Shown: piece by piece, positions 18,043 through 56,646 of the stretch
How the letters are laid out: every line of letters begins with the position of its first letter
Numbering within the stretch: position 1 is the first letter of the stretch
Assembly: GCA_907165135.1 (NCBI GenBank)
Contig: OU015570.1
Location: 2,439,929 to 2,503,928 of the forward strand
DNA: 64,000 bases
Direction: 5' to 3'
Source of the DNA: Oikopleura dioica
Lineage: Eukaryota; Animalia; Chordata
The notes under the pieces: model-generated
The model's input: only the letters and a program-made list of their open reading frames with translations
The model's database searches: none
Told to the model about the DNA's origin: nothing
Position numbers and translations under genes: made by a program

Positions 18043-18393
18043 TGTAGTAAGCGAGCTAGCCCCTGGCGCGCTCATTGCGCACGTGACATGGGAGCAGCAT
18101 GCGAGCGCACGTGACGCAGCGCTCAGAAAACCAAAAAGTTCGTTTTAATTGAACTTGACGAAAAATAACCGCACTCGCGGAAATCCGCCGATTCTGCCGT
18201 TTACAACGAAATTCTTGGAAAATAACGAAATGCACGGAAACCTACGGAATTGGCGGATAAGTATATAAACTGTTCACTGTTCAAATTTTTCACTTACACT
18301 CACAGAGATAAATAGAGTGCCAATAAACAACAAAATACAAATTTTTGTTTCCCTTTTTCTTTTGTCACTTGCGTAATAGAAGCAAGCAGTACA
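18043..18393 (+). repeat. 5' LTR of the older gypsy element
   Basis: TGTAGT...AGTACA termini, TATA-like gtatataaa at about 18261, AATAAA at 18322, then aat plus the PBS. Confidence 0.85.
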
Positions 18394-18693
18394 AATTGGT
18401 GACTGATAAAAATGGCGAGAATTAAGAGCAACAACTCCTGTTAATAACGATTCCCGAATACGATTGAAGAGAGCTGTTGTTACGATCGAAGAGAGCTGTT
18501 GACACGATTTTTGCTGATAAATTTGAAGGACAGGTTATAAGGTCCTTAATTACCAATTATATCCAGGGTAAACCTAAGCAAGCGGAGTTTAACCATAACT
18601 TAAACCACCGACAGGTGAACCTTTAGGATCAGTTTTTGCACTTAAACGGACCAATTTTTTTGAAAACAATAGATTTCTCTGATTACTTCAAGA

Positions 18694-20447
18694 ATGGCTG
18701 AAACTTATTTCAAGATTGTTCTCGATCTGAACAGAACGGAGCTTGTGAAAATCTACGATTTACTTGATGGGCGAGTCTTTCCAACTCCCATTCCTATGAG
18801 TGATAAAGCTTCCGTGGTTGCAAATATCCTTTATTTGGACGATTCTATCCTTGGTCGCGGAAAGAAATACTTTTTCAAAAAAGACAAAGACGGCTTTGTT
18901 GGATATCTACCCGAATTTGCCACCGATCATCCAAATGTGGCAGATTCGATTGAACAAAAATATGCGAAAAGACGCCACCGACTGGATCTCGATCGAATCA
19001 AGACATCTAAAGCAGCCAAAGATATCAACTCCTTGATCGCGAATTTACCAATCACTGATAGCGACATTGAGGACGAGCTCGATTTGTCCGACGATGATTC
19101 TGTTAATGAGGCGGAGGCGACGGTAATTCCAAATGCTCAAAACACAGGCAACCGCCCAAATATCAAGAAGGAAAAGAAAGAACCAAAGCCACGAGTGCAA
19201 AATCTGCAGTAAAACCAGCTCCAGCAATGTCGACGTCAATGCCAACATCATCAACATTGAAAGTCAAGCCGCCGAGATATGATGCAACTATCCCTATCGC
19301 TTCCTGGCTAAAAAACCTCGATATTTTCGCCCACTGCTCAAAATTGCAAGACAATGAAATATTAACAGTGGCGCTTAGTACATTACTCAATGAATCAGAA
19401 GGGACTCGCATAATCGAGAGCTTGGAAGATGAAGAGTTAAATGACTTGGCAATGTTCAAAAAACGACTTGTTACGATGCTTGGAAAAACAGCTGACTTCT
19501 ACAAGAGTGAATTCAAGTCCTTCAATCGCGGCTCAGACAGCTTGGGAATGTGCCTCAGCAAATTGATAAGCCTCTACAAACAAGGCTATGGTCAGAAAAT
19601 CTCGGCGAGAACGACAAATAACTGATCATTGAGCGATATGCTGAAGCCCAAGATCAAAAATCCGTGAATAACTTATGCGTGAGAAATCGGAACTGACGTT
19701 GGAAAATATCGCGATTCGATCAAGTGAAATCGATAACAGCATGCCTAAACGTGATCTCAATTTCAGCATCCAAGCTGAATCAAAAAAGATGAAATGCAGG
19801 AATACATCAATCAGATGAAAGAGCTGCTCAAGAAACACTGATCAACAGACGACAAAAGTCCAAAAAACAAGAGGAGAGGTAAACGAGCTCGCCTTGATTT
19901 CGAGAAACTAAGAGGCCACTGCTTCTCCTACTCAAAGAAAAGGACATGTCAATATGCTTCAAAAAACCAAAAAGTTCGTTTTAAACGAACTTGACGAAAA
20001 ATAACCGCACTCGCGGAAATCCGCCGATTCTGCCGTTTACTACAAAATTCTTGGAAAATAACGAAATGCACGGAAATCTACGGAAATGGCGGATAAGTAT
20101 ATAAACTGTTCACTGTTCAAACTTTTCACTTACGCTCACAGAGATAAATAGAGTGCCAATAAACAACAAAATACAAATTTTTGTTTCCCTTTTTCTTTTG
20201 TCACTTGCGTAATAAAAGCAAGCAGTACAAATTGGTGACTGATAAAAACGGCGAGAATTAACAGCAACAACTCCTGTTAGATGAAAGAGCTGCTCAAGAA
20301 ACACTGAACTACAGACGACAAAAGTCCAAAAAACAAGAGGAGAGGTAAACGAGCTCGCCTTGTTTTCGAGAAACTAAGAGGCCACTGCTTCTCCTACTCA
20401 AAGAACAGGACATGTCGATATGCTTCAAACTGTAAGTATGTCCGCTC
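18694..20447 (+). pseudogene. gag: Gag region of the older element (frameshifted, rearranged), ending in a CCCH-like finger
   Basis: VKPPRYDATIPIASWLKNLDIF is a gag-like motif. The C-terminus reads CFSYSKNRTCRYASNCKYVR. Confidence 0.7.
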
Positions 20448-20603
20448 TAATGGGACAAATTGTGAGTCTTGTAATTCCTAGATGAAGACTGGTTTATTCT
20501 TGGCGACGTGCGCTTTTAAATAACGTAAGAGTAAACAGTGACAGGAGCGGCAGAGAGTGACAGTTAAACAGTAAAAATGCATTCAAGCACATTTTCTCCC
20601 ATA
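20448..20603 (-). repeat. 3' LTR (156 bp)
   Basis: Identical to the 5' LTR. Preceded on the minus strand by the purine tract GAAGGGGAAA. Confidence 0.97.
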
Positions 20604-20623
20604 ACTTTCCCCTTCATTGAGAA

Positions 20624-21460
20624 TTAGATGATGGCCTTGAAGGCGCTGAGTGCTGCTTTTTCTAATTTCTTCCGATCTCTTGGTTTCAACTTCAGGTAGG
20701 CGATGATAGCCGGGGACCCATTCATCAATGTTGCAGACGGCCTTGGGTAAGCGTTTGATTCGAGTACTTGTTGCGGGTTGCATATGATTGAACAGAAGAT
20801 GGTCGAACGAGTGTTTCCCAACATGTATCTCACATCGTAGTCGATATCCGAAAAGTGATGGTATAGATCAAGAAGGCGATAGTTGTTCATGGCGATGAGT
20901 AGATCGATTCTCTGATCGCTCGCGCTACAGTCCATTTGAATGATGGCACGCCAGGCTTCCTTGATTTTGCTCGCTGTTCCTGTGTTAAGAGCGTCCGTCA
21001 GGTTTTTCTGAAGTCGAGGAGGGGCAGGTCGAAGCGTGAATGAATTAAAGGGGCGCAAATTTTCATGCAAGCACTGCATGAATCGTCCATTTTCGCTCGT
21101 GCCTGTCAACTTTCTCCAGACCGTTTTGCATTTTTGTTCTCCCGCCTTTTTGATTGGTTCGCTGTTCTGGATCATCAGGTTGATTCTGTCGTAATGCTCC
21201 ATTTCCAGCATTTGTTGCACGTTTGCGACTGGTTGGTTGGTTGTTGATGCTTGGTTGACAGTGGGTTCTGTAGCACCTAGTTTTCTTACCGACTGGGAGG
21301 TGCTCTCCCCTGCATCAAGAATCGCTTCGTCGTTCCCGACGGCAAGACCAACAAGGTCCGGATCGTAATACTTTACGATATCTCCGTTCTCGGAGTTTTG
21401 GCTTTGCCCGCCAGTAAGAACCTCTAGGATATCGAGGTTATCTTGGTCTGTTCCGACCAT
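20624..21460 (-). CDS. Accessory ORF5 (278 aa), orphan
   Basis: Uninterrupted ORF with AAAATG context. The stop is 8 nt before the PPT and inside the LTR pair. Confidence 0.8.
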   Translation of the reverse strand: MVGTDQDNLDILEVLTGGQSQNSENGDIVKYYDPDLVGLAVGNDEAILDAGESTSQSVRKLGATEPTVNQASTTNQPVANVQQMLEMEHYDRINLMIQNSEPIKKAGEQKCKTVWRKLTGTSENGRFMQCLHENLRPFNSFTLRPAPPRLQKNLTDALNTGTASKIKEAWRAIIQMDCSASDQRIDLLIAMNNYRLLDLYHHFSDIDYDVRYMLGNTRSTIFCSIICNPQQVLESNAYPRPSATLMNGSPAIIAYLKLKPRDRKKLEKAALSAFKAII

Positions 21461-21931
21461 TTTTCGAACTTCGAAAATTCAAGCAAAAATTTTTCTCTTT
21501 TTCTTGCTTTTTTTTGAATTAAATGAATTTGGACGTTCTTTTTATGCCCTTGCATTTACATACTTTGCCGGTAGTACATAGACCGTCAGACACTCCGAAA
21601 ACGCTGATTTTTGACTTTTACTGGCATCGTGACTATTAGCTAACGCTTGCCTAGGCACTATGTTTGTCGAGTGTCTAAAAGAAAAATCTGAATTCTAAAA
21701 ACTTTTATCTCTTTTTTTTTTGAATAAATATACTGCAAAAAGGGTAAAATTTATCAGTAAACCTATAAAAACAAGTTACTTGAACAAAACAGATTTCACT
21801 GAATTTGAAGACTTTGGAACTTATCTTGAATATTTGCTGACCCCTGGCGGCCAGTTATGTTTGCCGAGTATTTTTAAGAAGACAGATTCTCTGAGATTTT
21901 CAGAAAATCTAGCTTCATTTTTCCTTTGAAA

Positions 21932-22475
21932 ATGGAACGAGAATTTATGAATTTAACCTTGCGAGCTGAGGCCGCCAATGAAGCGGCTCGCGTTATCGAT
22001 GATATCAAATCAGCCGTTGAAATAGATTACGGGAATCTATCTGCTGAGATTTATGCCGCTAAGGTTTTTCTCATTGATGAAGAGTGAGTACTATTTTATT
22101 ATTTTGATATTTATAAATATTGTTAGTGTTGACTTTGATGGAATGCTGCGAATTGTTGATGATTATAATTCTATAATGCTTGGATACAAAAAGATTCAGA
22201 AGGAATTTATGGTTGGTTATTTTTCATTTTCAAAATAAGTCTATTTTAAGTTTGCTGTCCGGACTTTGCTAAGCAATCCTGTCTCTTCGATTCTTTTGCG
22301 TGAAAAAACGGGATTTTTTCGAGTACTTATGGAGATTCGTATGTTACGTAAGGATATTCAAGGTCTCAAAGATGAAGTAAAAAAGCGATTCGAACACTTT
22401 TTGACTGCAGATTCTCTGCCTAAGGTTGATGCAGACGATTGTTTGGAACAAATGACTGGTTCTGATTCTGAATAA
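21932..22475 (+). CDS. Antisense three-exon gene (exons 21932-22083, 22127-22211, 22251-22475; 153 aa, unknown function)
   Basis: Removing GT-AG introns of 43 nt (gtgagt...ttag) and 39 nt (gttggt...ttaag) gives a 462-nt open frame. TTTCAG at 21898-21903; AATAAA overlaps the stop. Confidence 0.8.
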
Positions 22476-22645
22476 AAAAAATGCCGCGAATGATTTTATG
22501 TTCGTTGTTTTCTTCTATTTTTTTTTGTTTCATGCCTGAAATGGCTGAAAATTTGTATTTTTGTATATTTTTTTTTTCATTTTTTATTTTAAGTAAGCTA
22601 GGCTGGGTTTGTACATGAATGAGCTAAGCGTAAGTAAGAGTAAAA

Positions 22646-23173
22646 CTAGGTATTGAGATAAAACAAATTTGGTCGGATTTGGAGACAGCAACATGAAAAA
22701 TTTATGATCCTGGTAAAGCGCGATTCCGTTTCTAATTCTTTCTTTTGCTTAAGTTTATACATGCAAAAAAGACTACTGTCAGAAAGTTCAACTAAGACTG
22801 ACTGCAAATGATCACGATCTTCGGCTTTCTCAATTGATAGTAAAAGCTCTATAACGTGATTCCGAAAATCCGGAATGGTTGTTTCTTCGTGAAAGTTATT
22901 TGAGTTTTGGATTGGTTGCTCAATAACTGCATTGTTACCTGGTTCATAGGGAGATCGGGCGGAGAATGCGACAGGCATCAGTTGCTGCTGCACCGGCGAT
23001 TGAAATGACTGTAGCGGGAGCATTGCGCTATTTACATATTCTTCTTCTTTTCGTTGAGTACGCATTGAATCAGGCGGTGGTGGTGGCGGAAGCGGTTTAA
23101 CACATAAAAAGTTAGTAGCAGGTGTTTCTGAATAATCGGAAGACTCGAAAGAGTCATTTCTATTTCGGTTCAT
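22646..23173 (-). CDS. Accessory ORF4 (175 aa), Pro-rich with a C-terminal CCC
   Basis: ATG 14 nt after the env stop, preceded by ttttaacag. AATAAA lies downstream at about 22585-22590. Confidence 0.7.
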   Translation of the reverse strand: MNRNRNDSFESSDYSETPATNFLCVKPLPPPPPPDSMRTQRKEEEYVNSAMLPLQSFQSPVQQQLMPVAFSARSPYEPGNNAVIEQPIQNSNNFHEETTIPDFRNHVIELLLSIEKAEDRDHLQSVLVELSDSSLFCMYKLKQKKELETESRFTRIINFSCCCLQIRPNLFYLNT

Positions 23174-23187
23174 TTCTGTTAAAAGGG

Positions 23188-25953
23188 TTAATTTTGATAA
23201 AAACTTTTTCTCGAATTTTCATTACGTGAAAAACTCGACGTTGTAAATATGGGTTCATGTTCTTCGGAAATGTCTTCAAGCTCACGTGATTTTGTCATTG
23301 GACTATTTTCGGGCCGTCTTGGGGGGAGCCGTGTTGGGTGCATTCTATCATGGCTAAAACTCTGATTCGCGAAATTTCTCTTTACCGGGTTTTGCTGATT
23401 ATTTTTGGGTTTCAAATATTTCCGACAAATACAACTAATCTTAGTGAGTCCCTTAAGACCGAAAAGGATTGATGAGCCCAAAAATTTGAATATTTTCCAA
23501 ATACCAATTACAAGTGATTTACCTAAATTAAAGATCCATTGATATTTTGCGCAAATTCCGATAATTATACCTAAAATTATCACTCCAATTACTACAAAAC
23601 TTATATAAAGAGTCTTGTTTGAAATTCCGAAAAAGTTAGCGATTTTAGTTAACGTATCTGTAGCTTTTTTTACTCTAACAAATGATTTGTCGATTTCCGT
23701 TTGATAGTCCTTTATAATGTCATCAACTACGCTCTTATTTAGGTAATTGTTGAGTTGGCTTGATGTTTTGAATGACCAAAAATTATCTTCAATTTCTTGA
23801 TGAAGGCTAAATTCTAGTTCTTTCATGCTTATCGTCTTTTCAGCTTTGTTCAGGCTGGTCCCGCCGGCTTTAACAACGAATCTAGCGCGTTTACATATGA
23901 CCATCTGATCAAATTTCTGCCGTTCTATTGTTGTTATATTACTTTCTGATTTAAAAGTTTCGAGCTTTTGGACTTCAGGAAGCTTGAAGTCTTCCTTATC
24001 AACAATTTCGTACGTGTTAAAGAAACTGACTAATACTTCTTTTAAGGATAATTTTGACGTAAACAGACAATCATTGTTACTAGAAAAAACTTCAGATGTG
24101 CAATAATTATGTATCTGTCGAGTAATTAGTGCAGTGGCGCAGTCCGAGTTAACCCTAACTGTATCAATGCTACAGAATCGATACCCTAAATAAGGTACAG
24201 TAGTACAAAGATCCAATGAATACGCTTTACCGTTAGCGCTAAGTAGCCCTATCATGTTTGGGACTTTATAGCTTAGATAATAATAAATAATTTCCTGATT
24301 TTCATTTTTAACCTCTTTTACCGGGATAGGGACTGATAAAACATGATATGATTTGTCGAATTTATTTAGAGAAGGTAAAATAAATTTAATACTGAATTCT
24401 ATACCAACTAGGCTATTTTCTTTTAGTTCCTTGAGAGTTGTCGTAACTTTTGCAAGTTCGAAATTAGCTCTATGATAAAACCCTATGCATCCATTTTCAA
24501 GCCCAGGATTCGCTAATTGACATAATTTGATCAAATATTTTTGAGCTGCGGACCCGGGGTACTGAGTTCCGATCTCAATTTCCATTTTTTGAGCCTCTGA
24601 TAAAAATAACAAAAACACTTCGAAGATATAATTGTCAAACCTAATTCTTTGAATTTCTAACTCCTGAGTACACTCACTACGCTGGAGGACCATTAATTTA
24701 TTTGTATTATCATTGATTTTTTCGATGCTCTTTCCTTCTATCTTTGCTAAATTTATTTCTCTCAATTCGTCATTTCTCAACTGATCGTGAATATCATCGA
24801 TTTCACCTTCTAAAACTGCGTTCTTGTGGTTGTTTATGATGTATTCGACGAGGGTCAGGCCGACGGCCCAGTCTCCTGCGTCTCTACGTTTTCTAGAATT
24901 TATAATTGATTTTTTCTCGGTTCTTATGACATAAATCTCCACTATCCGGAACGCTAAACAGATTTCTGAGAACAGATCGTCCTCGATGACGATATCATCG
25001 TAACCTTCGCCTTTTCTATGGCTGAAATAGAGTCTTAAGCTAAGATTAGTTTTTCCGGAAAACTTCATCATCCACTCCTTTGGAATTTGAAAACTAACAA
25101 AATCGTAATTTAAATTATCTTGATACAAGTAACGAAATGCGTGGTCTAGCTGGTTACCCCAGATCTTGAAATTAGTTCCAGGTGAGCTGAAACTTGACAA
25201 TGGTGGAAAGGTGAGTAGCCATTTTGCAGCCCCATACAAGCTCTTGGACATCTGTATTATGACTGTATTTGGTTTTCCCGCTACTTCAAGGTCCCATTCA
25301 AACACTAGCTTTGGGTTAAAAACTTTTGAACAAGACTTACTTAATTGCGAGCCTGTATTCAAATTAGGATCAGAAAATTCTGTTGTGTAATCAATAAGAG
25401 ATTCTTTTGTATTATACAAAGATTTGTGATGGTCGCTGTCGCCGATTGAAAATTTTTTAACTAAAAAATTCAAGTTTATGTCTCCTTCGTTGTAGATAAT
25501 TAGATTATTAAGTAATTTGCGCGGGGTCCACTGATCAGTTTCGAAAATTTCTTTGTTTGGAAGGTCAAAATATTCGCCAAGAAGTTGGTTCAGTTTGGTT
25601 ATCGAATCGTTAGTAAGATTATGATGGGTTAGGCCCTGGAAACATTCATTATTCTTAGGAACTTCAAAATCTAAGATATCCGGAAAAATTGACAGCTGGA
25701 AACTTCCAAGCTGAGAATCGCTGATGTAAAACGAGTCGGGGCCTTTTTCTAAAACTATTCCATTTTTTAGTAGATCAGTTCCTATTTCTTTACCGGTTTT
25801 CCCTAACTCGCGTTTTTCTTTAGTATTTACATTTTTAAGGGTGTCACTTTTTGTTTTCGGCGGCGCGCTCAGCGTTGAAGAAAGTGTACTATTTTCAGGC
25901 GGCGTTGCGGATTGGGCGAGCGCGGTGAGTGAAAATATGAGCAGAAAATTCAT
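23188..25953 (-). CDS. env: Env-like class I fusion glycoprotein, 921 aa
   Basis: Signal peptide MNFLLIFSLTALAQS and furin site RKRR (24883-24894, about aa 354-357). A hydrophobic segment and heptad repeat follow, then a Cys-rich ectodomain and TM LYISFVVIGVIILGIIIGICA (about aa 782-802). Position is directly after pol. Confidence 0.9.
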   Translation of the reverse strand: MNFLLIFSLTALAQSATPPENSTLSSTLSAPPKTKSDTLKNVNTKEKRELGKTGKEIGTDLLKNGIVLEKGPDSFYISDSQLGSFQLSIFPDILDFEVPKNNECFQGLTHHNLTNDSITKLNQLLGEYFDLPNKEIFETDQWTPRKLLNNLIIYNEGDINLNFLVKKFSIGDSDHHKSLYNTKESLIDYTTEFSDPNLNTGSQLSKSCSKVFNPKLVFEWDLEVAGKPNTVIIQMSKSLYGAAKWLLTFPPLSSFSSPGTNFKIWGNQLDHAFRYLYQDNLNYDFVSFQIPKEWMMKFSGKTNLSLRLYFSHRKGEGYDDIVIEDDLFSEICLAFRIVEIYVIRTEKKSIINSRKRRDAGDWAVGLTLVEYIINNHKNAVLEGEIDDIHDQLRNDELREINLAKIEGKSIEKINDNTNKLMVLQRSECTQELEIQRIRFDNYIFEVFLLFLSEAQKMEIEIGTQYPGSAAQKYLIKLCQLANPGLENGCIGFYHRANFELAKVTTTLKELKENSLVGIEFSIKFILPSLNKFDKSYHVLSVPIPVKEVKNENQEIIYYYLSYKVPNMIGLLSANGKAYSLDLCTTVPYLGYRFCSIDTVRVNSDCATALITRQIHNYCTSEVFSSNNDCLFTSKLSLKEVLVSFFNTYEIVDKEDFKLPEVQKLETFKSESNITTIERQKFDQMVICKRARFVVKAGGTSLNKAEKTISMKELEFSLHQEIEDNFWSFKTSSQLNNYLNKSVVDDIIKDYQTEIDKSFVRVKKATDTLTKIANFFGISNKTLYISFVVIGVIILGIIIGICAKYQWIFNLGKSLVIGIWKIFKFLGSSILFGLKGLTKISCICRKYLKPKNNQQNPVKRNFANQSFSHDRMHPTRLPPRRPENSPMTKSRELEDISEEHEPIFTTSSFSRNENSRKSFYQN

Positions 25954-28900
25954 TTTCTCAGGTTATATCTTCTCCTTTGATGGGAACCATAAGTAACATT
26001 TGAACAATCAAGTGGTGAGTGTATGAGCTCTCTAGAGCCCCAAAGTTCGTGAACTAATTCCTTGTTTGCTTTGGACAATGTGTCTAACTTTGAGAGTTTT
26101 AGCAAAATATTTTTTAGTTTATCTTCTAATTCTAGTTTAATAAGAAATTTACTATTCCGAAGTATTATTTTAGTGGTAAGGACTTCTTTGAGCTCAAAAA
26201 CTGACTTGTACTGTCTCTTGATTACAAGATAAGGGCCTCTACTCGGAGTTCCGTGCCCTAGAATCGGCTTCGGATCTTTTACTAGCACAAAATCTCCGAC
26301 CTCAATTTTCGGTGCGAGAAAAGGCTTTGTAAGCGAGTAGGCATCAATTTTCTCTTGTGCTATAAATGTTGAAAATTGTTCTTTTATCTCGAGGTATTCC
26401 CTTAAGTCTGGGTCTATTGCCGGCGCTTTATCCAGGCGCAAATCCTCAAATTTAAGGCCTCTACTAATTCCGGCGAAAACTTGCATGGGACTATAGCCGT
26501 TTAGAGAAGATTTATTACTATGATTGTAATTTGTAGCGGCTAATTTCACAATGAATTCTATATTTTTTGTAGTTGGGTCGACCATTCTTATTTTAGCTCT
26601 CAGGTCGCGATGGCTTCGTTCCACCAAGTTGCTAGGTGAATTATAAGGACTTATTTTTAAGTGGTGTACATTTAGCTCTTTAAGGGCCTCTTCTAGACTC
26701 GTCCCACAAAATTCCCCCCCATTATCGGTGAGCAAACGGGGCACGTGAAGAGTCGCACTTTCAACTCCCAAAAAACTTAACATCAAAACAAGTGCCGGAC
26801 CTAGATCTCGAGGCTGTTTCGAAATGATTCTTTCTATCTGCAGGAATCTGGAAAACTCGTCAATTAATGACAAGAAAATGAACGCTCTATTCTCAATTCT
26901 GAACTCAATACAGTCGGCATACAGAGTTTCTACTTTTCGAAGTGCTGGTTTTCTTGAGTAGTCACTCCTGTTAGTTGAGTATTTAGTAGGGCATGTTATG
27001 TAACAAGCAAGACATCCTTTGACTACTGAGTCCAGGATTGCCGTTTTTCCGGGAATATAAAGTGGCTCAGCCTTGATGATGGCATCAAGACTTTTGAGGC
27101 CGGCGTGCATGCTTGACACGTGAAAATGTTGGACAACTTCCCATGCAATATTTTTTGGGACCACTACAAGGGCTCTTCCAGAACTGTTCATCAAATACAG
27201 TAATTTATCATTTATTATATACTCTTTTTTGAAAAGCAAAAAGGGCCGATTTTCTTGGTTGTTTTTGAGGACATTTTTGCAAAAGTCGTCCTCTGATTGG
27301 GCTCTTTTTAAGTAATCTATTGAAATAAGGGGACTACTGCTAGAAATTTGGACTAGTTCTTTTTGAGTTAAATTAATTTCGTGCTTTTGCGACTCTTCTT
27401 TCGGAGAGAATCCCTTTTTGAAATTCCTTGGATGGAAGATCTCTTTTGACACGATTTCCGATGATAAGTCCGTCCTCGAAAGAGAGTCGACGACTGAAAT
27501 TAATTTGTCGCACCCTGGCAAATACCGAATTTCAAGAAGTGGAAAATCGCAAATGTCAGCGTAAGCTGATCGTGTACGCGTGCTTCCAGAACCTTTCAAA
27601 CCGCCTGAATGATGAACTCCCTCTAAACTCCGATGATCAATAAATGCTATAACCTTCAGGCCTGTTGGCAGAATGTCTGAAAAATGTCTTAGCCCGTACT
27701 GTAACCCGATAACTTCCCGGGCGCGACTCGACAACAAGCTTTCTTGTTCACTAAGTCTTTTCGAAAAATAAGCCGCTATCGAAATTCCAGAAATTTTGTT
27801 GTCTCTGATTGTGCAATTGCCAACAACAGAGCCTGTTTTATGCTGGGAAGTATCAGCACAGATAAAAATGTAGCGATCATTACTGCCATCAACGTATTCT
27901 AGATGATTAGTACTTATTCCCCCCTTAATTTTTTCTTTCACCGAATCTAGTGCGTCTTTTATTTCCTGAGTTAATTCAAAATTGCGACCTTTGCCGCACG
28001 ATTTCGCAATTGGGTCTAGTAACGCGGAGATACCCTTAATATGGCGATTATAGTAATTGAAGGCTCCAATAATCCGCATCGCACCTTTAGCACTTGTCGG
28101 ATATTCTAACTCTAAAAGTGCCTTGATCTTTTTCTCATTAACTTTAACCCCACTTTCGCTAATTTGATATCCTAAAAAGTCTGTTTCCTGCTTGAAAAAA
28201 GAGCACTTTTTTATTGCTACTACCAAGTTTTCGCCCGTGATCACTTTTAAAATGTTTTCAAGCGCCGCATTATGCCGCTTTACAGTAGTAACACAGATAA
28301 TATCATCCATGTAACCTAACAGGAAAAATTCTTTTTTCGGGCTTTTAATTTGATCTATTACTTTACTAATAAAACATTGAAATGTTGCTGGAGCGTTACT
28401 GAGACCTTGACTCATGCGGGTATACCTTAATTGTTCTGATCCAAATAAAAAACTTGTGATATCTCGGGATTTTTCAGTGAGCCCCAAGCTGTAATATGCG
28501 TTGCGGACGTCGATAGAGATAAATACAATTTTTTCGCCTGGAAATTTGATTTTTAAATCTGAAATCGCGCCACTAATTTTTGTCATAATAACTCGAATTG
28601 GGAGAATGGGGAACCTGGGCAAACTCATATTACTATTAACTGAACCACGATTCATTTTTCCCCCATTTGTTCCACTGTAGTTGTTGACAATTCTAACTGT
28701 GTTATCCTTCTTTTTTACTGTCAAGAGCGGACTGTTCCATGCCGAAATACAGGGCTCTAATATTCCAGCTTTTTTCATTTCATCTAATTTCTTCTCCACT
28801 ATTTCTACCACGTTACTGTCTGTTTTATATGGTCTTACGAAGATAGGTTCCATATCTTTATCTTTTAGACGAATCTCCGCCATAAATCTTGGCGTTAGTC

Positions 28901-29873
28901 CGCAGTCGCTGCTATGCCTGGAATAATACCAACTGAATTTGGCCAAAATTCTAAGTAATTGTTCCCGATAAGCGTTGGGTGCACCCTTAACTGCAATTTC
29001 AACGTCCTTCTGGACGCAAATTCTTTTTACTAATTCGTCTCTTTGTTGTCTCCACTGGACTAGCTCCTTCTCGAGTGTCACTTTTTCGAAATTTGAGACA
29101 TCTTTTACACTGACTAGAAAATTCAAGATTTTGTCTTCCTCCCAATTTTCAGAAAACTTATTTTTATTTCCACTACTTGGACTCAGTACAGTTGATCCTT
29201 CTTCCAAAATGAAGGTTCTGTCTGAAACGTTGCTTATTTTAACCTGGTTGCCTGATGACTTTTCGGCATTCCAGTTTTTTCCCAAAATCAGCCCTTCTTT
29301 TTCTAATTCTTCAGTTAATTTCAGATTATTTAAATCTTTCATTTTAAATCTAGACGTTGGGAGGGCAAGTTCTGAATGTGGTTCAATCATAGTTAGAGCT
29401 CGCAGATAGACAGAGGATTCCCGAGTATCCACCGTTTTTCTTAAAAAATTTACCCCTAAATCATCCATTTTCCCGTCTTTTATTTTAGTTTTCTGAAATC
29501 CTTCTGACGAGTGTGAGATACAAATGTTTTTTGATTTGACGACTTGGTTACACAAAATATCCATGCCAATTATGGCAGGAATCCGAATATTTTCATCCTC
29601 TAAGATGCATATTTCGCAGTCCGCAATTTCGTGATTGTCTTCTATTTTAATATTAACATTTATGGCTCTGTTAATTCTAAGCATCGATTTCTGTTTAACA
29701 TTGCCAACTTGGTATTGTACTATCTCTTCATTGAATTTTGAACCTATACTGCGTCTATGTACATAGCTACTGTTTGATCCAGTATCGATCATACAATCAT
29801 TTAAATTTACAGAAACTATTTGACTACCGTTGTACTGGATCAGCTGTAATGAGCATGTTGGGATTTCGCCCAT
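25950..29873 (-). CDS. pol: Pol polyprotein (PR-RT-RNaseH-IN), intact, 1307 aa
   Basis: IDTGS; WNSPLLTVKKKD; YMDD; ADTSQ; H..H..CLAC; YAD/TDNGGEF/VERSHR; C-terminal GPY motif. Confidence 0.98.
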   Translation of the reverse strand: MGEIPTCSLQLIQYNGSQIVSVNLNDCMIDTGSNSSYVHRRSIGSKFNEEIVQYQVGNVKQKSMLRINRAINVNIKIEDNHEIADCEICILEDENIRIPAIIGMDILCNQVVKSKNICISHSSEGFQKTKIKDGKMDDLGVNFLRKTVDTRESSVYLRALTMIEPHSELALPTSRFKMKDLNNLKLTEELEKEGLILGKNWNAEKSSGNQVKISNVSDRTFILEEGSTVLSPSSGNKNKFSENWEEDKILNFLVSVKDVSNFEKVTLEKELVQWRQQRDELVKRICVQKDVEIAVKGAPNAYREQLLRILAKFSWYYSRHSSDCGLTPRFMAEIRLKDKDMEPIFVRPYKTDSNVVEIVEKKLDEMKKAGILEPCISAWNSPLLTVKKKDNTVRIVNNYSGTNGGKMNRGSVNSNMSLPRFPILPIRVIMTKISGAISDLKIKFPGEKIVFISIDVRNAYYSLGLTEKSRDITSFLFGSEQLRYTRMSQGLSNAPATFQCFISKVIDQIKSPKKEFFLLGYMDDIICVTTVKRHNAALENILKVITGENLVVAIKKCSFFKQETDFLGYQISESGVKVNEKKIKALLELEYPTSAKGAMRIIGAFNYYNRHIKGISALLDPIAKSCGKGRNFELTQEIKDALDSVKEKIKGGISTNHLEYVDGSNDRYIFICADTSQHKTGSVVGNCTIRDNKISGISIAAYFSKRLSEQESLLSSRAREVIGLQYGLRHFSDILPTGLKVIAFIDHRSLEGVHHSGGLKGSGSTRTRSAYADICDFPLLEIRYLPGCDKLISVVDSLSRTDLSSEIVSKEIFHPRNFKKGFSPKEESQKHEINLTQKELVQISSSSPLISIDYLKRAQSEDDFCKNVLKNNQENRPFLLFKKEYIINDKLLYLMNSSGRALVVVPKNIAWEVVQHFHVSSMHAGLKSLDAIIKAEPLYIPGKTAILDSVVKGCLACYITCPTKYSTNRSDYSRKPALRKVETLYADCIEFRIENRAFIFLSLIDEFSRFLQIERIISKQPRDLGPALVLMLSFLGVESATLHVPRLLTDNGGEFCGTSLEEALKELNVHHLKISPYNSPSNLVERSHRDLRAKIRMVDPTTKNIEFIVKLAATNYNHSNKSSLNGYSPMQVFAGISRGLKFEDLRLDKAPAIDPDLREYLEIKEQFSTFIAQEKIDAYSLTKPFLAPKIEVGDFVLVKDPKPILGHGTPSRGPYLVIKRQYKSVFELKEVLTTKIILRNSKFLIKLELEDKLKNILLKLSKLDTLSKANKELVHELWGSRELIHSPLDCSNVTYGSHQRRRYNLRK

Positions 29874-29875
29874 TT

Positions 29876-31575
29876 TTACTCATCCAAGTAGTTCCCACGA
29901 AAGCTGGCACTAGATTGGTCTTCCTTTTGGGAATCATTATTTTTGCTTTCGTTTTGCAGAAAGTTTACATAGCGCTTGAATTTGAAACAATCTTTCTTGA
30001 AATGTCCAACTTTGCCACAGAAAAAACATTTTTTATCTCCATCGTATTTCCCCTTAAAACTAGGATTTTTATCTTTCTGGAACTGACGAGTCTGATCAGA
30101 ATTCGATTTACCTTCTTTACTATGGAATCTAGTGCCACCCTTATTTTCCCCTTTTCGGGCTCAAAAGAAGTTTTCTGAAATTTTTTGTCTTGGCCTGAAC
30201 CCTTTTTGGAATTCTCAATATCTCTGATTCTTTTTCTACAATCTTTTTTCACGTGACCAAACTTTAAGCAATAAAAACACTGAATTTTTGATTTATCCAA
30301 TGCGTTGATCACGACACTACTGTCTCTTTTCATGTCTGTGAGTTTCTGAAGCAGATTAAGAGTATCAATTACGCCCATACTCTCGTCCCTGAGCTTGAAA
30401 ATACTCTCATCCGTAACTTTCGGTGGCATCTTTTTTATGAATTCGATCAGAGTCAGCTCCTCAATGGCACTTGCTGACCGACAAGGCCATGCCCTTTCTG
30501 CCATTCCGAGCATTTTGTAAAATTGCTCAATAAGTGGTCGAGATGCTGAAATTCCGAATTTCTCCAAAGAGCTTTTTGCATCTAATGGGGTGAAATTGGA
30601 GCATTCGTAAAAGGCGTTTAACAGAACTTCGCATGATAGAGTTCCACTTCGACTCATTTTTCGAATAAGTAAACTCTTCAAACTTGGTTCGACATTGGTT
30701 AGAATTTGGCTAATTTTGATTTGCTCGGACGTGATCCCCGCCAATTTACACTGAAAAAGTGCGTCTGCCATCCAATTAGATATATTTTTAAGTTTTTCGA
30801 ATGTCATTTGCGACAAAGATATGCGGATTTTTGCCTGATCCTTAATTTCAATTCTAAACGCCGAAGAGAAGCTCTCGTCAAGGTTTGGTTGTCTTGGAGC
30901 TCGGCTCGGGGTAGCGTTTTCACTTTCCTCATAAAGTGATCTTTTAGGAAGTCGATCCGACATAAAATACGGAGTTGAAAATGGTAAAGGTGTGTCAGGG
31001 CTAATTTTCGGTTTTCGCTCAAAAGCTCCAGGCGTGGGCAACTCTTCCCTTTCTGGGGTTTCATCTCTAAAACCAACTTTTCTCGGGGTATAATCGGTTT
31101 TCACTACTGATTGGCTCAATTTTAATCTTGAAAATTCCGCAAGAAATGACTGGATAAACTGTCGTCCTCTTTCATTCGAAGTCCCAAATGTGCTAGGATC
31201 ACCAAGGTTTTCTATGGTAAAAAAGGTTTTCCTTGCATCCCTACTTGCTAAATCTAACACAAGACTGTCTAATTCTCGAACATTATCTTGCCTTTCTTCA
31301 TTTACCTTATAAGGGTCACTAACTGGGACGAGGCAGAGCATTGATTGCCCTGGAAAATGTATGGCACCAAAATCAATTGTGTCATTTTCCCCTAGACCTA
31401 GGTCTTGAAGTGCTTCTAGCTGTTTTGATTTTCTTTCATTTTTAAGTTCTTTAAATTTTTTGTCATCAACAACAGATAAAATATATTTAATTAATGGTTG
31501 GTTTAATGATTCGAGGTCAACTAAATATTTCGGAACCCCCGTAAGCGTACCTTCATTTTTATCTTCTTCACTCAT
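29876..31575 (-). CDS. gag: Gag; the zero frame ends at 29965 (536 aa), and a -1 frame with a second CCHC knuckle runs to 29876
   Basis: CFYCLKFGHVKKDC is in frame. CFFCGKVGHFKKDC at 29987-30028 is in the -1 frame. Confidence 0.9.
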
Positions 31576-31801
31576 AATTTAAAAATAATTATTCCCTTTC
31601 CTGGATTTTAAAAGATGATGAAGTGCATAAGTTAACCTGGATTTCTAGAACGCAAGAAGTTCTTAAAATTTTCTTACTTATTTTCCTATTCGAAGAAAAA
31701 TAAAAATTCCTTTTTACTTGAGTCGAATTTTCGACCAACCTCTTCTTGAGGCGTTTCTACGCGTTTGTAGAATTTGAAGTTCTAAACTTCAGTCACCAAT
31801 T

Positions 31802-31957
31802 TAATGGGACAAATTGTGAGTCTTGTAATTCCTAGATGAAGACTGGTTTATTCTTGGCGACGTGCGCTTTTAAATAACGTAAGAGTAAACAGTGACAGGA
31901 GCGGCAGAGAGTGACAGTTAAACAGTAAAAATGCATTCAAGCACATTTTCTCCCATA
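31802..31957 (-). repeat. 5' LTR (156 bp)
   Basis: Base-for-base match to 20448-20603. Followed on the minus strand by aat and TGGTGACTGA. Confidence 0.97.
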
Positions 31958-32105
31958 CGCTCAGACACGGTGCCAAAGGATGTTTTGGAATACATAAATA
32001 TAATTGAGTGACTAGATCGCCCTGAAAAAGCAAAACTTTTTATGTGTCCAAACTCAGAATCTGTACTCAACAGTCTGAAATTTATTCTTGTCACCGTCGA
32101 AAACC

Positions 32106-32540
32106 GTTGACGGCGGGTTCACGTCTTTATAAAGAATGGTTCTGTTTCGCGAAGACGTGAACCCGCTTATATCGGCTTTATGGGCGGGTTCACGTCTTTG
32201 TCCGATATTCAAGAAAAAGAAATATGATAATTGTTCTTTTTTTCATCAAACGCTACCTTCAATTTTTGACTTTTTATCCTCGTAAGTTTCCTAGAAAGCA
32301 AGCGCGAAGTGCACAGCTACTTCTGAATTATTTTCTTGCGTATGAGAATATTTTCTGAGCTTTCGGATTCCATTTATAGATCTTCCTTTTTGTGATAACG
32401 ATTCTAGATAGAAAATTCCATCTGAACAAAGAAGAATTATTCTGTTTCGAGGGGCTTGAAAAAGAATGGTTCTTCGATAAATAGAACCATCTTTTGCGAA
32501 AAAGAATCATTCTTTATAAAGACGTGAACCCGCCGTCTAC
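32106..32540. mobile_element. Mutator-like MITE inserted in the protease of the older element
   Basis: TIR of about 33 bp (gt[t/a]gacggcgggttcacgtctttataaagaatg) and duplicated tcgaaaacc. Removal restores LKFILVTVENLQYPAMLDTGG. Confidence 0.9.
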
Positions 32541-33256
32541 CATCGAAAACCTACAGTATCCGGCTATGCTAGACACCGGAGGCTGCCGTACCTGTATCAA
32601 AAGCGACCTTCCTTTCGTTCGAAAAACTCAAAATTCCGATGTTGAACTTATGTGTGCAAATAACGAGATCATAAAACCTAAACGATGTGCTCCAAAGAGG
32701 AACTTCAAATCAATTCACGTGACGGAAATTTTACATTGGATTGCTCCTTTTTGGTGGTTAACGATCTAAGTCTTCCGATCATACTTGGACTCGATTGCTT
32801 GAAAAATTTGTCCTTCAACGCCGGAGAAAATTACGTAGCACTCGAAAACCACAAGGTACATACAGTTTCTCCAGAGAACGCGTCAAGCCTTATCGAAATT
32901 TCGGCAATCATAGAAGTGGATCTTAAATCTGAGTCAGAAGCTGCTTCACTTGATAATTTCCGAAAATCACGCGAGTAAAAACAATTTTTCTCCGCAGATT
33001 GGAAATTTTGGCGCCGCAACTCAAATCCAAAAAGCGATTCTTACTGAACTTACAGAAAATCATCGTTTCTTATTTTCAATGTCGAGTGACGATCTCGGAA
33101 AACTTCTCGGATTTAGATTTGCTTTACTGACTCACGACGAATCAAAAGCGAGCAACCAACCACCACGACCAATTCCAGTGCACATCCGAGACCAAGTTGA
33201 AAGCGAAATAAACAGTTGGAAGTCTTTGGGAATTATTGAAGAGACACAATAAAATA

Positions 33257-33589
33257 CAGTTTTTTATGGAATTTTTGGACATCAAATTTTTGGACATTTT
33301 CTGCGCCGTATTTTTAAATTTTCTGTTATTTTTGCCAGATATGAAGTTTTTTCATATTAAAATCTTACTTTTTCTTTGAGAAAGATAAGATTGAAGGTTG
33401 ATCTCGTACCCCTAAAACATTTTTTGTCTTTAGAAGAAGGATTAAACAAAGAATGATGGAGATTTTTCTCAAAAAAATTTTTTTAAGCGATTTGGATGGG
33501 ATATTTTTTTTGGCCGCGTGTATCAAATTTATGGACATTTTCGCGAAAATCTTGGGACAAAAAATGTCCAAAAATTCCATAATTAACTG
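33257..33589. mobile_element. pogo/Tc1-like MITE inserted in the RT of the older element
   Basis: Same TIRs as 4680-5076 in the opposite orientation; interrupts EETQ...KKPD. Confidence 0.88.
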
Positions 33590-33963
33590 TTATTTTGATA
33601 ATAATTTTGATATTAATGATAATTTTGAAAAAGCCAGATTCAAGCATTAGAATAAGCCTTGATAAGAGAGGGTTAAATAAAATGCTTATCAAGGACAGAT
33701 ATCCTCTTCCCCATATGCTAACTGTATTCAACAGAATTGGAGAAAAACTCACTTCCTGCGATGCTTGCTACATCAGTTCTCTCGATAATCACCGAGGTTA
33801 CCGGCAAATTCAGTGTACAGCAGAAGATTTCCATAAATTGGCTTCTTCTTTTGGTAACAAGCATTATCAAGCGAATCGAATGGCATACGGAACTGCAACT
33901 GCGCCTAGTGCTTTCTCGCGAATAATGTCAAAATTGATGGATCATCCAAGTATTATATACTTA

Positions 33964-34665
33964 CAGTGAAACCCCAACTTAAGGCCACTTTTTGGATGAC
34001 AGCTAATTTGAAAAATGGCCTAAAGTTGGATAATTCTCCCACTAAGTTGGATGACGCTTAAAATTTTCTATTTCTGGAGTAAGGGACTGAATCATGGGAA
34101 TGGAAAGAATCATGGGAAGAAGAAGGTCCGATCATTTATTGATGACAATGTGGTGGAGCATGATGACCTGGATATCAATGAAGAAGAGCTCGTGAAGAAG
34201 TCCAACGAAATCTTCATGAATATGAACCCAGCAATCATCAAGCGCTCATGGATCAATACTGGCCTCATTGACGAGAAAAAATAAGGAGGAGGATATTATA
34301 GAAGTTGAAGATCTCGATGTTGCTAAAATGGTATAAGAGAAAGAAGAGGAAGAAAATCTGGTGGAGCATTTCTTGGCTTTTCAAATTGATGAAACACGAG
34401 CTGCAACTCCGATGGAGGTTGAAGAAGTACCACAAGTTCAAGTGAGAGAAGATGCCGACGCTGAAAAGCCATTGACTTCAAAATCGCCAAAGAAGCAGCC
34501 GAAGATAACGAGTTTTTTATTAAAAAATTAATCTGCGATTTACTCACTGTAAATAAAAATTGAAAAAAAGTGGCCTTAAGTTGGATTTTTTTTTGGATGA
34601 CAGATTTCGGGGATTTTTCAAAAAAGTTGCCTTAAGCTGCTCGGCCTTAAGTTGGGGTTTCACTG
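33964..34665 (+). mobile_element. Internally deleted pogo-like DNA transposon
   Basis: TIRs cagtgaaaccccaacttaaggcc / ggccttaagttggggtttcactg with TA TSD. Internal IIKRSWINTGL resembles a pogo transposase C-terminus. Confidence 0.92.
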
Positions 34666-37600
34666 TAGATGATTTAATTTGTATTGACAGCGATTTTGAC
34701 AGTCACGTGAGAACCTTGGAATTAATTCTGAAAAAATGTGAAAAGCATGCGCTCTTATTGAGCGCGAAAAAGTCTAACCTGTATATGCGCAAAACAGAAT
34801 TCCTTGGTCACAAAATCTCGAGAGCCGGAATTCAGCCGACAGATTAACAAATCGATGCAATCAACAAAATTACAGTACCAACGTCAAGAAAGGAATTAAA
34901 AAGATATCTAGGAATGGTCACTTTCAACGCAAAATACGTAAAGGACGCGTTAATAATTATAGGCTATAATTTATAGCGCCCTTATACGAGCTCACCAGCC
35001 AAAAGAGAGAATTCATCTGGACTGATCGACACCAGAACGCGTTTTCGAAAATGAACTCTGAGCTCACTAAAAAACCGACACTTGGCCACTTTAAACTTGG
35101 CTCGAAGCTCTTACTCGTAACAGACAGCTCTAGTAAAAGTGTCGGAGGGACATTGTACCAGTACCAAGATGACAAGCTCATCACCCTTGAATACTTCTCG
35201 AAAGCTCTAACTGGACCCGATTTAATAAGAATTATGCGTGTTAAAGAATTATTCGCACTTATTTGGGCCATAAATCACTTCGAATTTTACCTTCTGAACA
35301 CGCATTTTGAAGCATACGTCGACCACAAATCATTACTGTTCCTATTCAAAGAGCAGCAACAATCAAAGCTAGATATCAAGTTTTGCAATATACAGTGCTA
35401 CCTGACTCAGTTCGACTTCACTATAATCCACAAACCTGGTAATAATGATGTCATGGCAAGTGATGATTACTTCACCCGACTACCAACGTCAGAAAGCTCT
35501 TTACTGGACGACGACGCTGCTCGATTCGAAGACATTCCAGAGCGAGAATACATGTTCCATCTCAAATCGCAAGACGATGAAAACATTGTTTTCTCATATG
35601 GATCCGAGAAAATAAATAGTAAGAAAATGATACAACTGCAAGACAACTGTAACCTCACTAAAGACAAAATTGTCAAAGCAAAAAAGCACAAGAAAACAAG
35701 ATTTTCTTTCAAAAATGACATTTTGTACGCACAAAATAGACTAGTGTTACCCGATCAGTTGGCTACCCAATTCATACAGTACCTTCACTGTATAACCGGA
35801 CACGGTGGATCAAAAGCGCTGACTGACATGTGCTTAAAATTTTTCATCAGCAACATTCAAGATAAAGTCCGCGCCATAACCAGCTCATGTCCTGTTTGTA
35901 TTCAAGTGAAACCTGTCAAGAAGCTCGAACCGTCAATGATAGAAAAAAGAAATTTCGAGTCTGTCCTCTTCGAAAAGACATTCATGGACCTGGTCGATTA
36001 TGGTCGCAAAGATAGCAATATTATGCGCTACTTGTTAACCTGCCGCGACTCACTCACCGGATTTTTGGATGGAGTGCCACTTGCATCCAAAATCTGATAA
36101 GTTGGTTGCAAAAGCCATACTTACTCTTGTCCTTCGACATGGCATAACCGAAACCGCTGTCACCGACAATGGTCGTGAATTTGGTCCTTCAACCGGCAGA
36201 TTTTTGAACGATTTTAACTAAGGCAAGAACCAACGACAGCGTATCGATCTTGCTCAAATGGCAAAGTCGAAAGACTCCACCGCAAAATCCACATACATTT
36301 GAAAAATATGAATGCAAACGATCGAAACTGGTCGCAAAAATGGGAACTATCAATGATAGTTCTAAAGAATTTAGAAAACGATAGATACTGCTAAAGAGCC
36401 TTTTATAAAAGCTCTCAACTATAACATCTCAAAACTACATCCTGCAATACAATAATTCCAAGTTGAACGATACCAAAAACAGCTCCGACTCGACAAAAAC
36501 AACTGCCCTGTTTTAGAAAAAGGTTCAGTAGTGCTCGTCTGGAAGCCGAATATTTCTGATGGAAAGCTTGGGACCAATTGGACTGGACCTTATTTCATCC
36601 ACAAAAGAATTTCTAAAGACTCCTACATTGTTAAATGTGACCTCACAAAACGTGAATATAGAAGACACATATCGCTTAAACGCCCCGTAAAAAATATGGT
36701 TGGCAATTTGACGAAATTTAGAACGATCGAAAACGAGCAAGAAATGAAATCACCACAAGATGATGTTAAAAAAAGGAATCGACTTTATGCAAGACAGAAA
36801 GTCAAACTTAGTTAATTTTTTAAGAATGGCCCATTCAAGTTTATTTGATATATCTGCGAAAATTTCAAAATAAGGGTCGAAATAAAAATTTTTGAAAAAA
36901 AGTTACAGTTTTTTTCCTCTTTTGTGGACCCCAAGTTTGTGGACATTTTTTCCATTTTAAGGCCTTTAAGTGGGACACTTTATAAAAGATGCTGTTCCAA
37001 GTTTGTGGACATTTTTTCGCGGAAAGAAATAAAAAAGACAATTTTTTTTGTGGTGAGATTAATTCTTGCTAATCAAGATCGAGTTGTTCATCGTTTACGA
37101 AAAAAAAACAAAATTAAAGGTTCAACTAGAGACAAAGGGGCCTTTGCCAGTCTTTCAGGAGCATAAATGCAAAGTCTAGAAAACCATTCGGCGTACTCAA
37201 ATCTCGAAAAAAAATTTTAATCGATTTCGATGGGACATTTTTTCGGAAGACGTTGCCCAAGTTTGTGGACATTTTTCGAAAATTTTGGGACAAAAAATGT
37301 CCACAAGAGAGGAAAAGAACTGTACTTGAGCCAAGATCTGGGCGAGCGGCGGCAATTCAGCACACGAGCGCCACCCATCCATCGCGGCGCGCCGCGCACA
37401 CCGGCGATTTTTCGCCATTTTCACGACTCTAGAACTCGGGTTCTAGTAAAGATTTTTAAATTCTGATTTCAGATTTGAAATCAGGGGAATGAATTTAGGG
37501 GGACACTAAAAATGGTTATTTGTTTTTAAAGCATTTTAAAATTTTAAAATTATTTGGGTGCGAACCCTAGTACCTCTGTTTGCGCACTACTTAACGTGTT

Positions 37601-54900: not shown

Positions 54901-55530
54901 TGATAAACATATTGTTGACACGACTGGACAAGCCGACAAAATAAAATCTTTTCAAGCCAGCCACCATGTGAATACTTTGTAAAATTTTAGTAATATTTTA
55001 CATATTTGTTACTCATTCGCCACGGATATTAGTTATCTCGACTTTTGTAAAATTTTAGTAATTTTTTACAAATATCTTACTTCTGCGCCACTTAGACACT
55101 CATAGAGATATTTGTAAAATTTTAGTAATATTTTACATATTTGTTACTCACTCGCCACGGACATACGTAACTTCGACTTTTGTAAAATTTAAGTAATATT
55201 TTACATATTTATCCTTCACTCGCCACTGACATAAGTTATTTCGACTTCTGTAAAATTTTAGTAATTTTTTACATATTTCTTACTTATTTTGATCTGACTT
55301 GTACAGAACCCTTTATTCTGCCCTATTTTAATGTGCGCTGACCCGATTACAGTTATCGACGTGACGAATCGACGATTGCAATCATAAACAACTGATTTAT
55401 TTCCCAACTCTGAAACACCTGACTGACTCTGACTCCCTTTATAAGCGATTTCCGCCCTGCCAAAAACATTCAAATTCAATAAAACCTCGATCGACTTTAA
55501 ATTTTTGTTCCAGTCTTGTCTAGTCATATC

Positions 55531-56646
55531 ATGGCGACCAGCGTTAGACACCCAATCGAACTTCTCGAAGCTTTCGAGGACAACACACTTCCTAAGACGA
55601 AGATCACGATGAAAACGACAAAGAGACAATTAAAAAGCCTAGAGACAGACCTTCGAGCAAAAATGGAACGAATGAAACTGATTTTCGACACGTCACTTAA
55701 ACTTCACGACATTAAGGATAATACAAGCGAAAAAATAGCCCTGGAAGCAGAATTCAAGCGTACTCGACGAAATATCTGCCTAGCTCACCTCGAGTCAAAT
55801 TTCCAGGAGCGCTACGAGGACGAATTCGACGACATCAAGGGCTCATCTGACTTCTTCGAGCTCCTACAACAAATCATTGGCAAAGAAAACACAGAGGAGG
55901 AAGCAAAAGAAGCCCGAAACAAATTGAACAAAGCCAGCCGTCGTGTTGATGAAGAAGAGACATTCTCACGGTTTCACACTCGACTTGAAAAACTTGCAAC
56001 CACCGCAAGCAAAGGTAATGCGACCCTTCAGAAACATTTTTTGGAGGAAGCATTCAATGCGAATTTGACGCCAGAACTGCAACGATACCTTCTGGACCAA
56101 GGAAAATCGACATGCAGCACCAATGACACAGCAAAATATCTCGACCAAATGAAGAAACACAAACGCCGAGTCGAGATCAAAGCCGTCTCCGCAGACGACA
56201 CAATGCTACGGGAACAAGTAACCGCTCTCACTCATCAATTTTCGACGCTGCCGACACGTGAATTTCTGATGGAATCCCTTCACTCTACCCTTTCGTCAAT
56301 GATGGAGGAAAGAATGAGCTCATTCAGACGAGAGCTCACGGAAGTCAACAAAGTTCAGGCAAGTCTTCAGAAAAAACAGCCTGCGCCAGAGTCAAGAAAC
56401 TCCTACGAACAACAACGAGCAATCAATACAGCTGCCCAATTCACTTCTAGAAGATACGACGACCCATTTCAGCCAAGACAACCGAGACAATTTGAACGAC
56501 GCCAGGATGGAGCGCCCCTGATCTGTTTCGCATGCGGAGTGAAAGGTCATACGAAGAAGAATTGCCGTGGCACCGTCATCTGTCATATCTGCAATGAAAG
56601 AGGCCATATCAAGGATATCGGCCCGCAAAGATCGTCAAAAAACTAA
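55531..56646 (+). CDS. gag: Gag with CCHC knuckle(s)
   Basis: CFACGVKGHTKKNC plus a degenerate second knuckle CHICNERGH. Confidence 0.9.
   Translation: MATSVRHPIELLEAFEDNTLPKTKITMKTTKRQLKSLETDLRAKMERMKLIFDTSLKLHDIKDNTSEKIALEAEFKRTRRNICLAHLESNFQERYEDEFDDIKGSSDFFELLQQIIGKENTEEEAKEARNKLNKASRRVDEEETFSRFHTRLEKLATTASKGNATLQKHFLEEAFNANLTPELQRYLLDQGKSTCSTNDTAKYLDQMKKHKRRVEIKAVSADDTMLREQVTALTHQFSTLPTREFLMESLHSTLSSMMEERMSSFRRELTEVNKVQASLQKKQPAPESRNSYEQQRAINTAAQFTSRRYDDPFQPRQPRQFERRQDGAPLICFACGVKGHTKKNCRGTVICHICNERGHIKDIGPQRSSKN
56637..56643 (+). promoter_or_regulatory. -1 ribosomal frameshift slippery site A_AAA_AAC
   Basis: Canonical X_XXY_YYZ heptamer in the gag frame directly before TAA. The -1 frame is open into the protease (FQIDTGAQVS). 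Confidence 0.85.

Follow-up and report, generated by a model that had tools for sequence, protein, structure and literature searches.

A recently inserted, env-carrying Ty3/gypsy element of Oikopleura dioica with a predicted three-gene cassette between env and its 3' repeat

In a 64,000-nt stretch of the chordate Oikopleura dioica (NCBI GenBank assembly GCA_907165135.1, contig OU015570.1, positions 2,439,929 to 2,503,928; hereafter 'the window', to whose numbering all coordinates refer), a retroelement of 11,510 nt occupies 20448-31957 and reads along the minus strand. With modest confidence, and from sequence features, we favour reading it as an env-carrying Ty3/gypsy element that inserted recently and whose lineage likely gained a 2.6-kb cassette of three genes for predicted intracellular regulators. 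The cassette occupies the 2,584 nt from env to the 3' long terminal repeat (LTR) and holds two open reading frames (ORFs) in the sense direction, ORF4 and ORF5, together with an antisense gene model (Table 1). It lies between the primer-binding site and the polypurine tract, that is, within the reverse-transcribed unit, and so is copied in each round of reverse transcription. An earlier interpretation from the letters alone (the sequence-only reading) had claimed identical LTRs with a perfect target-site duplication, intact pol and env, and about 2.6 kb after env in which a spliced antisense gene converges with ORF4 and diverges from ORF5 across some 470 bp. Our analysis bears out each of these: the LTRs are identical over 156 nt, the 5-bp CGCTC is duplicated, pol and env are open frames of 1,307 and 921 amino acids (aa), and the divergent gap measures 471 nt from ATG to ATG, the splicing being a gene model.

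ORF4, ORF5 and the antisense gene model are beyond chance. An ORF of at least 175 aa, the length of ORF4, appeared in four of 1000 shuffles, and one of 278 aa, the length of ORF5, in none of 1000. When both strands were searched blind for ORFs that start with ATG and contain two short, AT-rich introns, the outcome was precisely the 153-aa plus-strand model, with nothing on the minus strand; shuffled sequence gave no two-intron model of at least 153 aa (0/300 at either threshold), nor did any of seven antisense tiles of gag, pol and env yield one. The introns of the model (22084-22126, 43 nt; 22212-22250, 39 nt) are 84% and 79% AT, against 58-69% in the exons, and their lengths would fit O. dioica introns, for which a median of 48-51 nt is given in PMC8008620. 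ORF5 needs no intron, and this confinement of introns to the antisense strand fits the reading of a gained cassette. The predicted antisense protein is acidic (isoelectric point 4.7). An AATAAA overlaps the stop of its gene, another lies about 60 nt downstream of the ORF4 stop and a third within the LTR, and these positions are no more than suggestive. The divergent gap also holds intron-like GT-AG segments on the plus strand (21744-21792 and 21854-21903) and an upstream ATG, so that the 5' end of the antisense gene is uncertain and the gap may be smaller. A 25-nt imperfect direct repeat lies in the gap as well (21659-21683 and 21856-21880), with a plus-strand ATG in each copy; the copies could represent alternative first exons, or else motifs of a promoter.

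Empty sites bear on both ends of the element. In three of four runs (X1, X2 and X4) there are contigs from element-free copies of the flanking repeat, in which one flank runs directly into the other, with the joint from 19948 to 31960; in these empty sites the pentamer is present once and differs by one base from the duplicated CGCTC. Such contigs support the element ends as drawn. Both LTRs run TA...TA instead of TG...CA, with the TG/CA pair 2-3 nt further in; the inverted pair TGGGA/TCCCA sits just inside the LTR ends. We hold it very improbable that the block after env is a second mobile element inserted into the 3' region of this copy. The window is admittedly rich in nested elements, and the studied element itself sits inside another LTR element; however, the identical LTRs leave little time for a later insertion, 20604-23187 has no inverted or direct repeats at its termini (those detected are at most 35 nt and mostly AT-rich), no transposase or reverse transcriptase (RT) family matches the block, and among the contig joints listed none skips it.

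Short reads recover the cassette in place. One 11,259-nt contig from X1 covers 20574-31831 with no substitutions and one gap, and a single contig across the whole interior means that the cassette is no mis-assembly. Two contigs from X2 cover 20576-25341 with one gap and 25402-31787 with one substitution and no gap, and contigs from sample S3 hold most parts in pieces, including ORF5, the antisense gene and the join between ORF4 and env. The reads carry one extra base somewhere within 20576-25341. At 27153 (pol codon 907) X2 differs by one base from the window and from X1, so the samples carry slightly different copies or alleles. Contig depth is about twice as high in the element as in one flank contig (135 vs 68 in X1, 61 vs 35 in X2), with other flank contigs closer to the element (89, 116; 48), and depth does not equal copy number. 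A related contig of 4.4-5.5 kb, about 81% identical over parts of pol and also matching gag and the 5' end, is present in X1 and X2; among the pieces listed, none falls on env or the cassette.

The backbone is that of a Ty3/gypsy (Metaviridae) element. Its pol encodes, in the order protease, RT, RNase H and integrase, a DTG motif at residue 30, RVT_1 at 387-571 with the RT motif YMDD, RT_RNaseH at 667-755, and an integrase with a zinc domain, rve at 984-1079 and GPY at 1213; LTRs, primer-binding site, polypurine tract and target duplication are all present. Overlapping pol by 4 nt, env has a signal-peptide-like start, RKRR at 354, a transmembrane segment at 784-802, eight N-glycosylation sequons and nine cysteines from the cleavage site to the anchor. 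It has no Pfam match and nothing in PDB, and its language-model look-alikes in Atlas (0.91-0.92), with Baculo_F in 12% of members and Fusion_gly in 18%, serve as leads only, recognition being low (1299). Judged by these sequence features, the element is an errantivirus in the operational sense of an env-carrying Ty3/gypsy element.

The gag gene, in which the sequence-only reading noted no break, is split over two frames, and for this reason the copy is likely defective and not autonomous. The change of frame falls between two zinc knuckles, of which the second scores above the first, and it recurs in the X2 contig 25402-31787, whose lack of any gap places the break in the DNA itself. Natural recoding, by frameshifting or splicing, would instead make the element autonomous with two forms of Gag, and would account for two segments that both look functional, for the better-scoring second knuckle, for intact pol and env and for the same gag sequence in two samples. 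We hold it rather improbable, given that the region is not followed by a stable RNA structure (z +1.9; 197 of 200 shuffles fold as well) and that reading by eye showed no canonical in-frame slippery heptamer. A defective copy is the likely and preferred account, in which Gag would probably be borrowed from a sister element. The pol frame begins at its own ATG two bases past the stop of the second gag segment (29873-29878), with only two open codons upstream.

Of the three accessory genes, ORF5 is the one for which relatives were found. Three full-length relatives (P0001-P0003), 80-81% identical and drawn from ENA and Logan, fall into a single 50% cluster out of 1.84 billion proteins, with none from NCBI or UniRef, and among those 1.84 billion representatives no further credible relative was found; a fourth candidate, P0004, was dropped as a tandem-repeat artefact. 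At 53-55 substitutions these relatives retain the start, end and frame of ORF5, and their mean BLOSUM scores of 0.11-0.16 exceed the 99th percentile of 0.06 in a neutral simulation, in which 95% of 2000 runs gained a stop. Other searches returned little. For the accessory proteins, no match in Pfam, NCBIfam or PHROGs exceeded the cut-off; PDB gave nothing for ORF5 or ORF4, Rfam nothing, Atlas no usable match for ORF5, and a viral fold search no match at E 0.001 or better; AlphaFold models were unusable (pLDDT, the model confidence score, 34 for ORF5 and 38 for the C-terminal half of Env). Scans of IMG/VR with ORF5, env, pol, ORF4 and exon 3 of the antisense gene, and of JGI with ORF5, were likewise empty. 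The sole RT locus found in JGI (L001, 28%) was dropped as distant, and a weak match to the antisense protein at 33486-33767 (E 0.005, equalled by none of 30 shuffles) was discounted as the opposite strand of an RT fragment.

How such a cassette might be expressed can be proposed from its layout. ORF4 starts 14 nt past the env stop, behind the acceptor-like TTTTAACAG, and would be made with env and freed at the acceptor in that short interval; spliced-leader trans-splicing in the manner of the host is the most likely means. Gaps within O. dioica operons are at most 60 nt, with a median of 31, and are resolved by trans-splicing according to PMC7986045; the env-ORF4 gap falls in that range, so trans-splicing fits, and cis-splicing from the LTR would fit as well. 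The antisense gene and ORF5 would both be transcribed away from the gap that separates them, starting at an internal promoter there, with the ORF5 transcript ending at the LTR poly(A) signal, and use of internal promoters is described for Tor3b/4b elements in PMC4402516. Introns may persist in the antisense gene by virtue of its position on the strand opposite the genomic RNA, the sense genes needing none. Intracellular regulation is favoured because the three accessory proteins are without signal peptide or membrane segment (maximum hydrophobic 19-mer at most 1.12, vs 3.03 in Env). They could act on transcription or on the fate of RNA, or else counter silencing, a suggestion that we make tentatively.

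Several observations weigh against a conserved and expressed cassette. A single study supplied all the read sets that contain the element, and X1 and X2 may themselves be what the assembly was built from, so their contigs are not independent evidence of spread. The conservative changes in ORF5 (19-20 of 53-55) lie inside the neutral range, protein collections take in open frames only, and P0001-P0003 may lie either inside or outside retroelements. No relatives of ORF4 were found in the family, PDB and IMG/VR searches, the large protein collections not having been queried with it by similarity; none were found for the antisense exons, where the two-exon search is weak since exon fragments may escape gene calling. 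The sense AATAAA after ORF4 would require read-through by genomic RNA, and such hexamers are common in AT-rich DNA. Expression of the cassette is a prediction: four RNA runs with the same species label gave short partial matches (no reads at 99% or above, 3 of 118 at 95-99%, the flanks likewise) and are uninformative on the point. Placement in the Tor group is inferred. Lastly, the GC content at third codon positions (GC3) is 0.54 in ORF5, which suggests a separate origin.

Some of these points would also suit a block of captured host or foreign DNA, carried as a passenger of no use to the element in a young subfamily and intact only because it is recent. Its genes converge and diverge, its spacers are AT-rich and its introns short, which is a host-like layout, and to the base composition of ORF5 and the missing context of its relatives may be added the matter of size. 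Without the block the element would measure 8,926 nt, near the 8,983 and 9,482 nt of two O. dioica elements whose primer class is the same; a third published larvacean F-env element has 9,992 nt (the three of six rows in PMC13524379 that carry LTR coordinates). This closeness in size suggests a later gain of the cassette. Nonetheless, a mere passenger appears unlikely: the GC3 of ORF4 (0.35) and of the antisense gene (0.32) is like that of gag, pol and env (0.34-0.36), the block abuts its neighbours without spacer, fitting tightly with 14 nt to env on one side and 20 nt to the LTR on the other, and relatives of ORF5 from ENA and Logan only, in one 50% cluster, would be unusual for an ordinary host gene. 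A cassette of predicted regulators gained by the lineage is the reading we retain.

The nearest described systems are retroelements of the same and related hosts. Env-bearing Tor elements are known in Oikopleura, as the sequence-only reading had noted and as Henriet et al. 2015 (PMC4402516) describe, and they share with the studied element the order gag-pol-env, a furin site and C-terminal membrane segment in Env, near-identical LTRs and a target-site duplication of 4-5 bp. Membership of the Tor group is likely on these sequence features. The Env proteins of Tor3b/4b, as described there, have F-X-G as their fusion tripeptide and N-[L/V]-G ahead of the membrane segment, and Tor4b has an intergenic space between pol and env; here, in contrast, no F-X-G occurs within 25 residues after RKRR, the sole N-[L/V]-G (at 809) lies past the membrane segment, and pol and env overlap. 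With these motifs and that spacing absent, a better fit is Tor3a, in which splicing from the 5' LTR yields the env mRNA, or else an unnamed group. No genes after env in Tor are described in the main text of PMC4402516 or in the titles and abstracts searched, Repbase, Dfam and GyDB lying outside that search. The larvacean F-type errantiviruses Odio_3, Odio_4 and Oalb_2 (Chary and Hayashi 2026, PMC13524379) share, by description, an F-type env, the same primer-site class and short LTRs (190-450 nt). They span 9.0-10.0 kb, against 11.5 kb here, and the genes annotated for them are gag, pol and env only; the primer site of the studied element agrees at 11 of 12 positions with the tRNA end given for two O. 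dioica F-env elements in supplementary file 2 of that paper.

Further afield, an antisense gene between pol and the 3' LTR, with a regulatory role proposed, is described for maize Grande (gene23, which has its own upstream promoter), rice RIRE2, Retand and the Botrytis element Boty (brtn) (PMC7264820; PMC11963269; PMC8365987). For these plant and fungal elements, the same accounts describe no fusion-type env and no flanking pair of sense accessory genes, and we found no sequence similarity to them. Bdelloid rotifers offer animal LTR elements with a paramyxovirus-like env or other added genes, although those described in PMC5408684 carry one recognisable ORF3 (env, GDSL esterase or DEDDy nuclease), where the studied element carries env and three orphans. 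Since Tor elements with internal promoters (PMC4402516) and LTR elements with extra ORFs on the antisense strand (PMC7264820) are already known, finding both predicted here is less surprising.

The likeness to complex retroviruses is one of layout only. These have accessory genes between env and the 3' LTR, one of them antisense and spliced, and an internal promoter, features that are predicted here; the backbone and env class are different, and there is no homology. The studied env resembles F-type fusion proteins and its pol has gypsy-type domains. Human T-lymphotropic virus (HTLV) carries pX and an antisense gene, and foamy viruses an internal promoter; the antisense promoter of HTLV is cited in PMC7264820. 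The proposal in the sequence-only reading of a complex retrovirus in a Ty3/gypsy backbone stands as regards the backbone with env, the recent insertion, the three ORFs in the replicated unit and the layout of the 3' region. The module may belong to one subfamily instead of a family, ORF5 alone having relatives, and the infectivity that the same reading thought possible, in view of the split gag, and its internal bidirectional promoter are conjectural. More speculative, and somewhat doubtful in our view, is the possibility that a chordate Ty3/gypsy lineage independently became complex retrovirus-like, with a fusion-type env, three conserved accessory genes of new families, operon trans-splicing, a bidirectional internal promoter and introns preserved by orientation. 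If the cassette is conserved and expressed, then complexity through accessory genes evolved outside Retroviridae, in a gypsy element with env from the sister group of vertebrates, and the cassette would comprise three protein families without known match in a host whose embryos allow the study of Tor expression. The element would also show clearly how orientation determines which of a retroelement's genes may retain introns, and would allow a test of whether a retroelement borrows host trans-splicing to express a gene further downstream.

Table 1. Features of the studied element, with positions in the window
Feature	Positions	Strand	Remarks
Target-site duplication, right copy	31958..31962	.	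CGCTC; from sequence
5' LTR	31802..31957	-	156 nt, identical to 3' LTR
Primer-binding site	31787..31798	-	3 nt past 5' LTR
First gag ORF, 536 aa	29965..31575	-	first zinc knuckle at about 432-448; tail resembles off-frame sequence
Second gag segment, 94 codons, other frame	29879..30160	-	second zinc knuckle, zf-CCHC E 2.5e-6
pol, 1,307 aa	25950..29873	-	protease, RT, RNase H, integrase
env, 921 aa	23188..25953	-	F-type look-alikes
ORF4, 175 aa (predicted)	22646..23173	-	polyproline run and CCC near end
Antisense gene model, 153 aa	21932..22475	+	exons 21932-22083, 22127-22211, 22251-22475
Divergent gap, AT-rich, 471 nt ATG to ATG	21461..21931	.	candidate internal promoter region
ORF5, 278 aa (predicted)	20624..21460	-	no intron needed; no hydrophobic segment
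Polypurine tract	20605..20615	-	just ahead of 3' LTR
3' LTR	20448..20603	-	156 nt; AATAAA at 20493-20498
Target-site duplication, left copy	20443..20447	.	CGCTC; from sequence and empty-site joint in contigs

The surroundings of the element hold further retroelement sequence. The host repeat is a plus-strand LTR element (18123-20447 and 31958-36100) within which the studied element is nested; it has the same primer-site class at 18397 and 20233 and 321-nt repeats that are 96% identical. Its gag-like ORF lies at 19227-19625, and its protease and RT are present in pieces interrupted by more insertions. Near retroelement remains, long open frames at 6556-7497 (-), 7649-8590 (-) and 18673-19209 (+) gave no Pfam match above cut-off. 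A second LTR element at 54914-61215, with identical repeats of at least 300 nt lying 6,002 nt apart, has a gag knuckle, RT and integrase, and is without a match to the env of the studied element.

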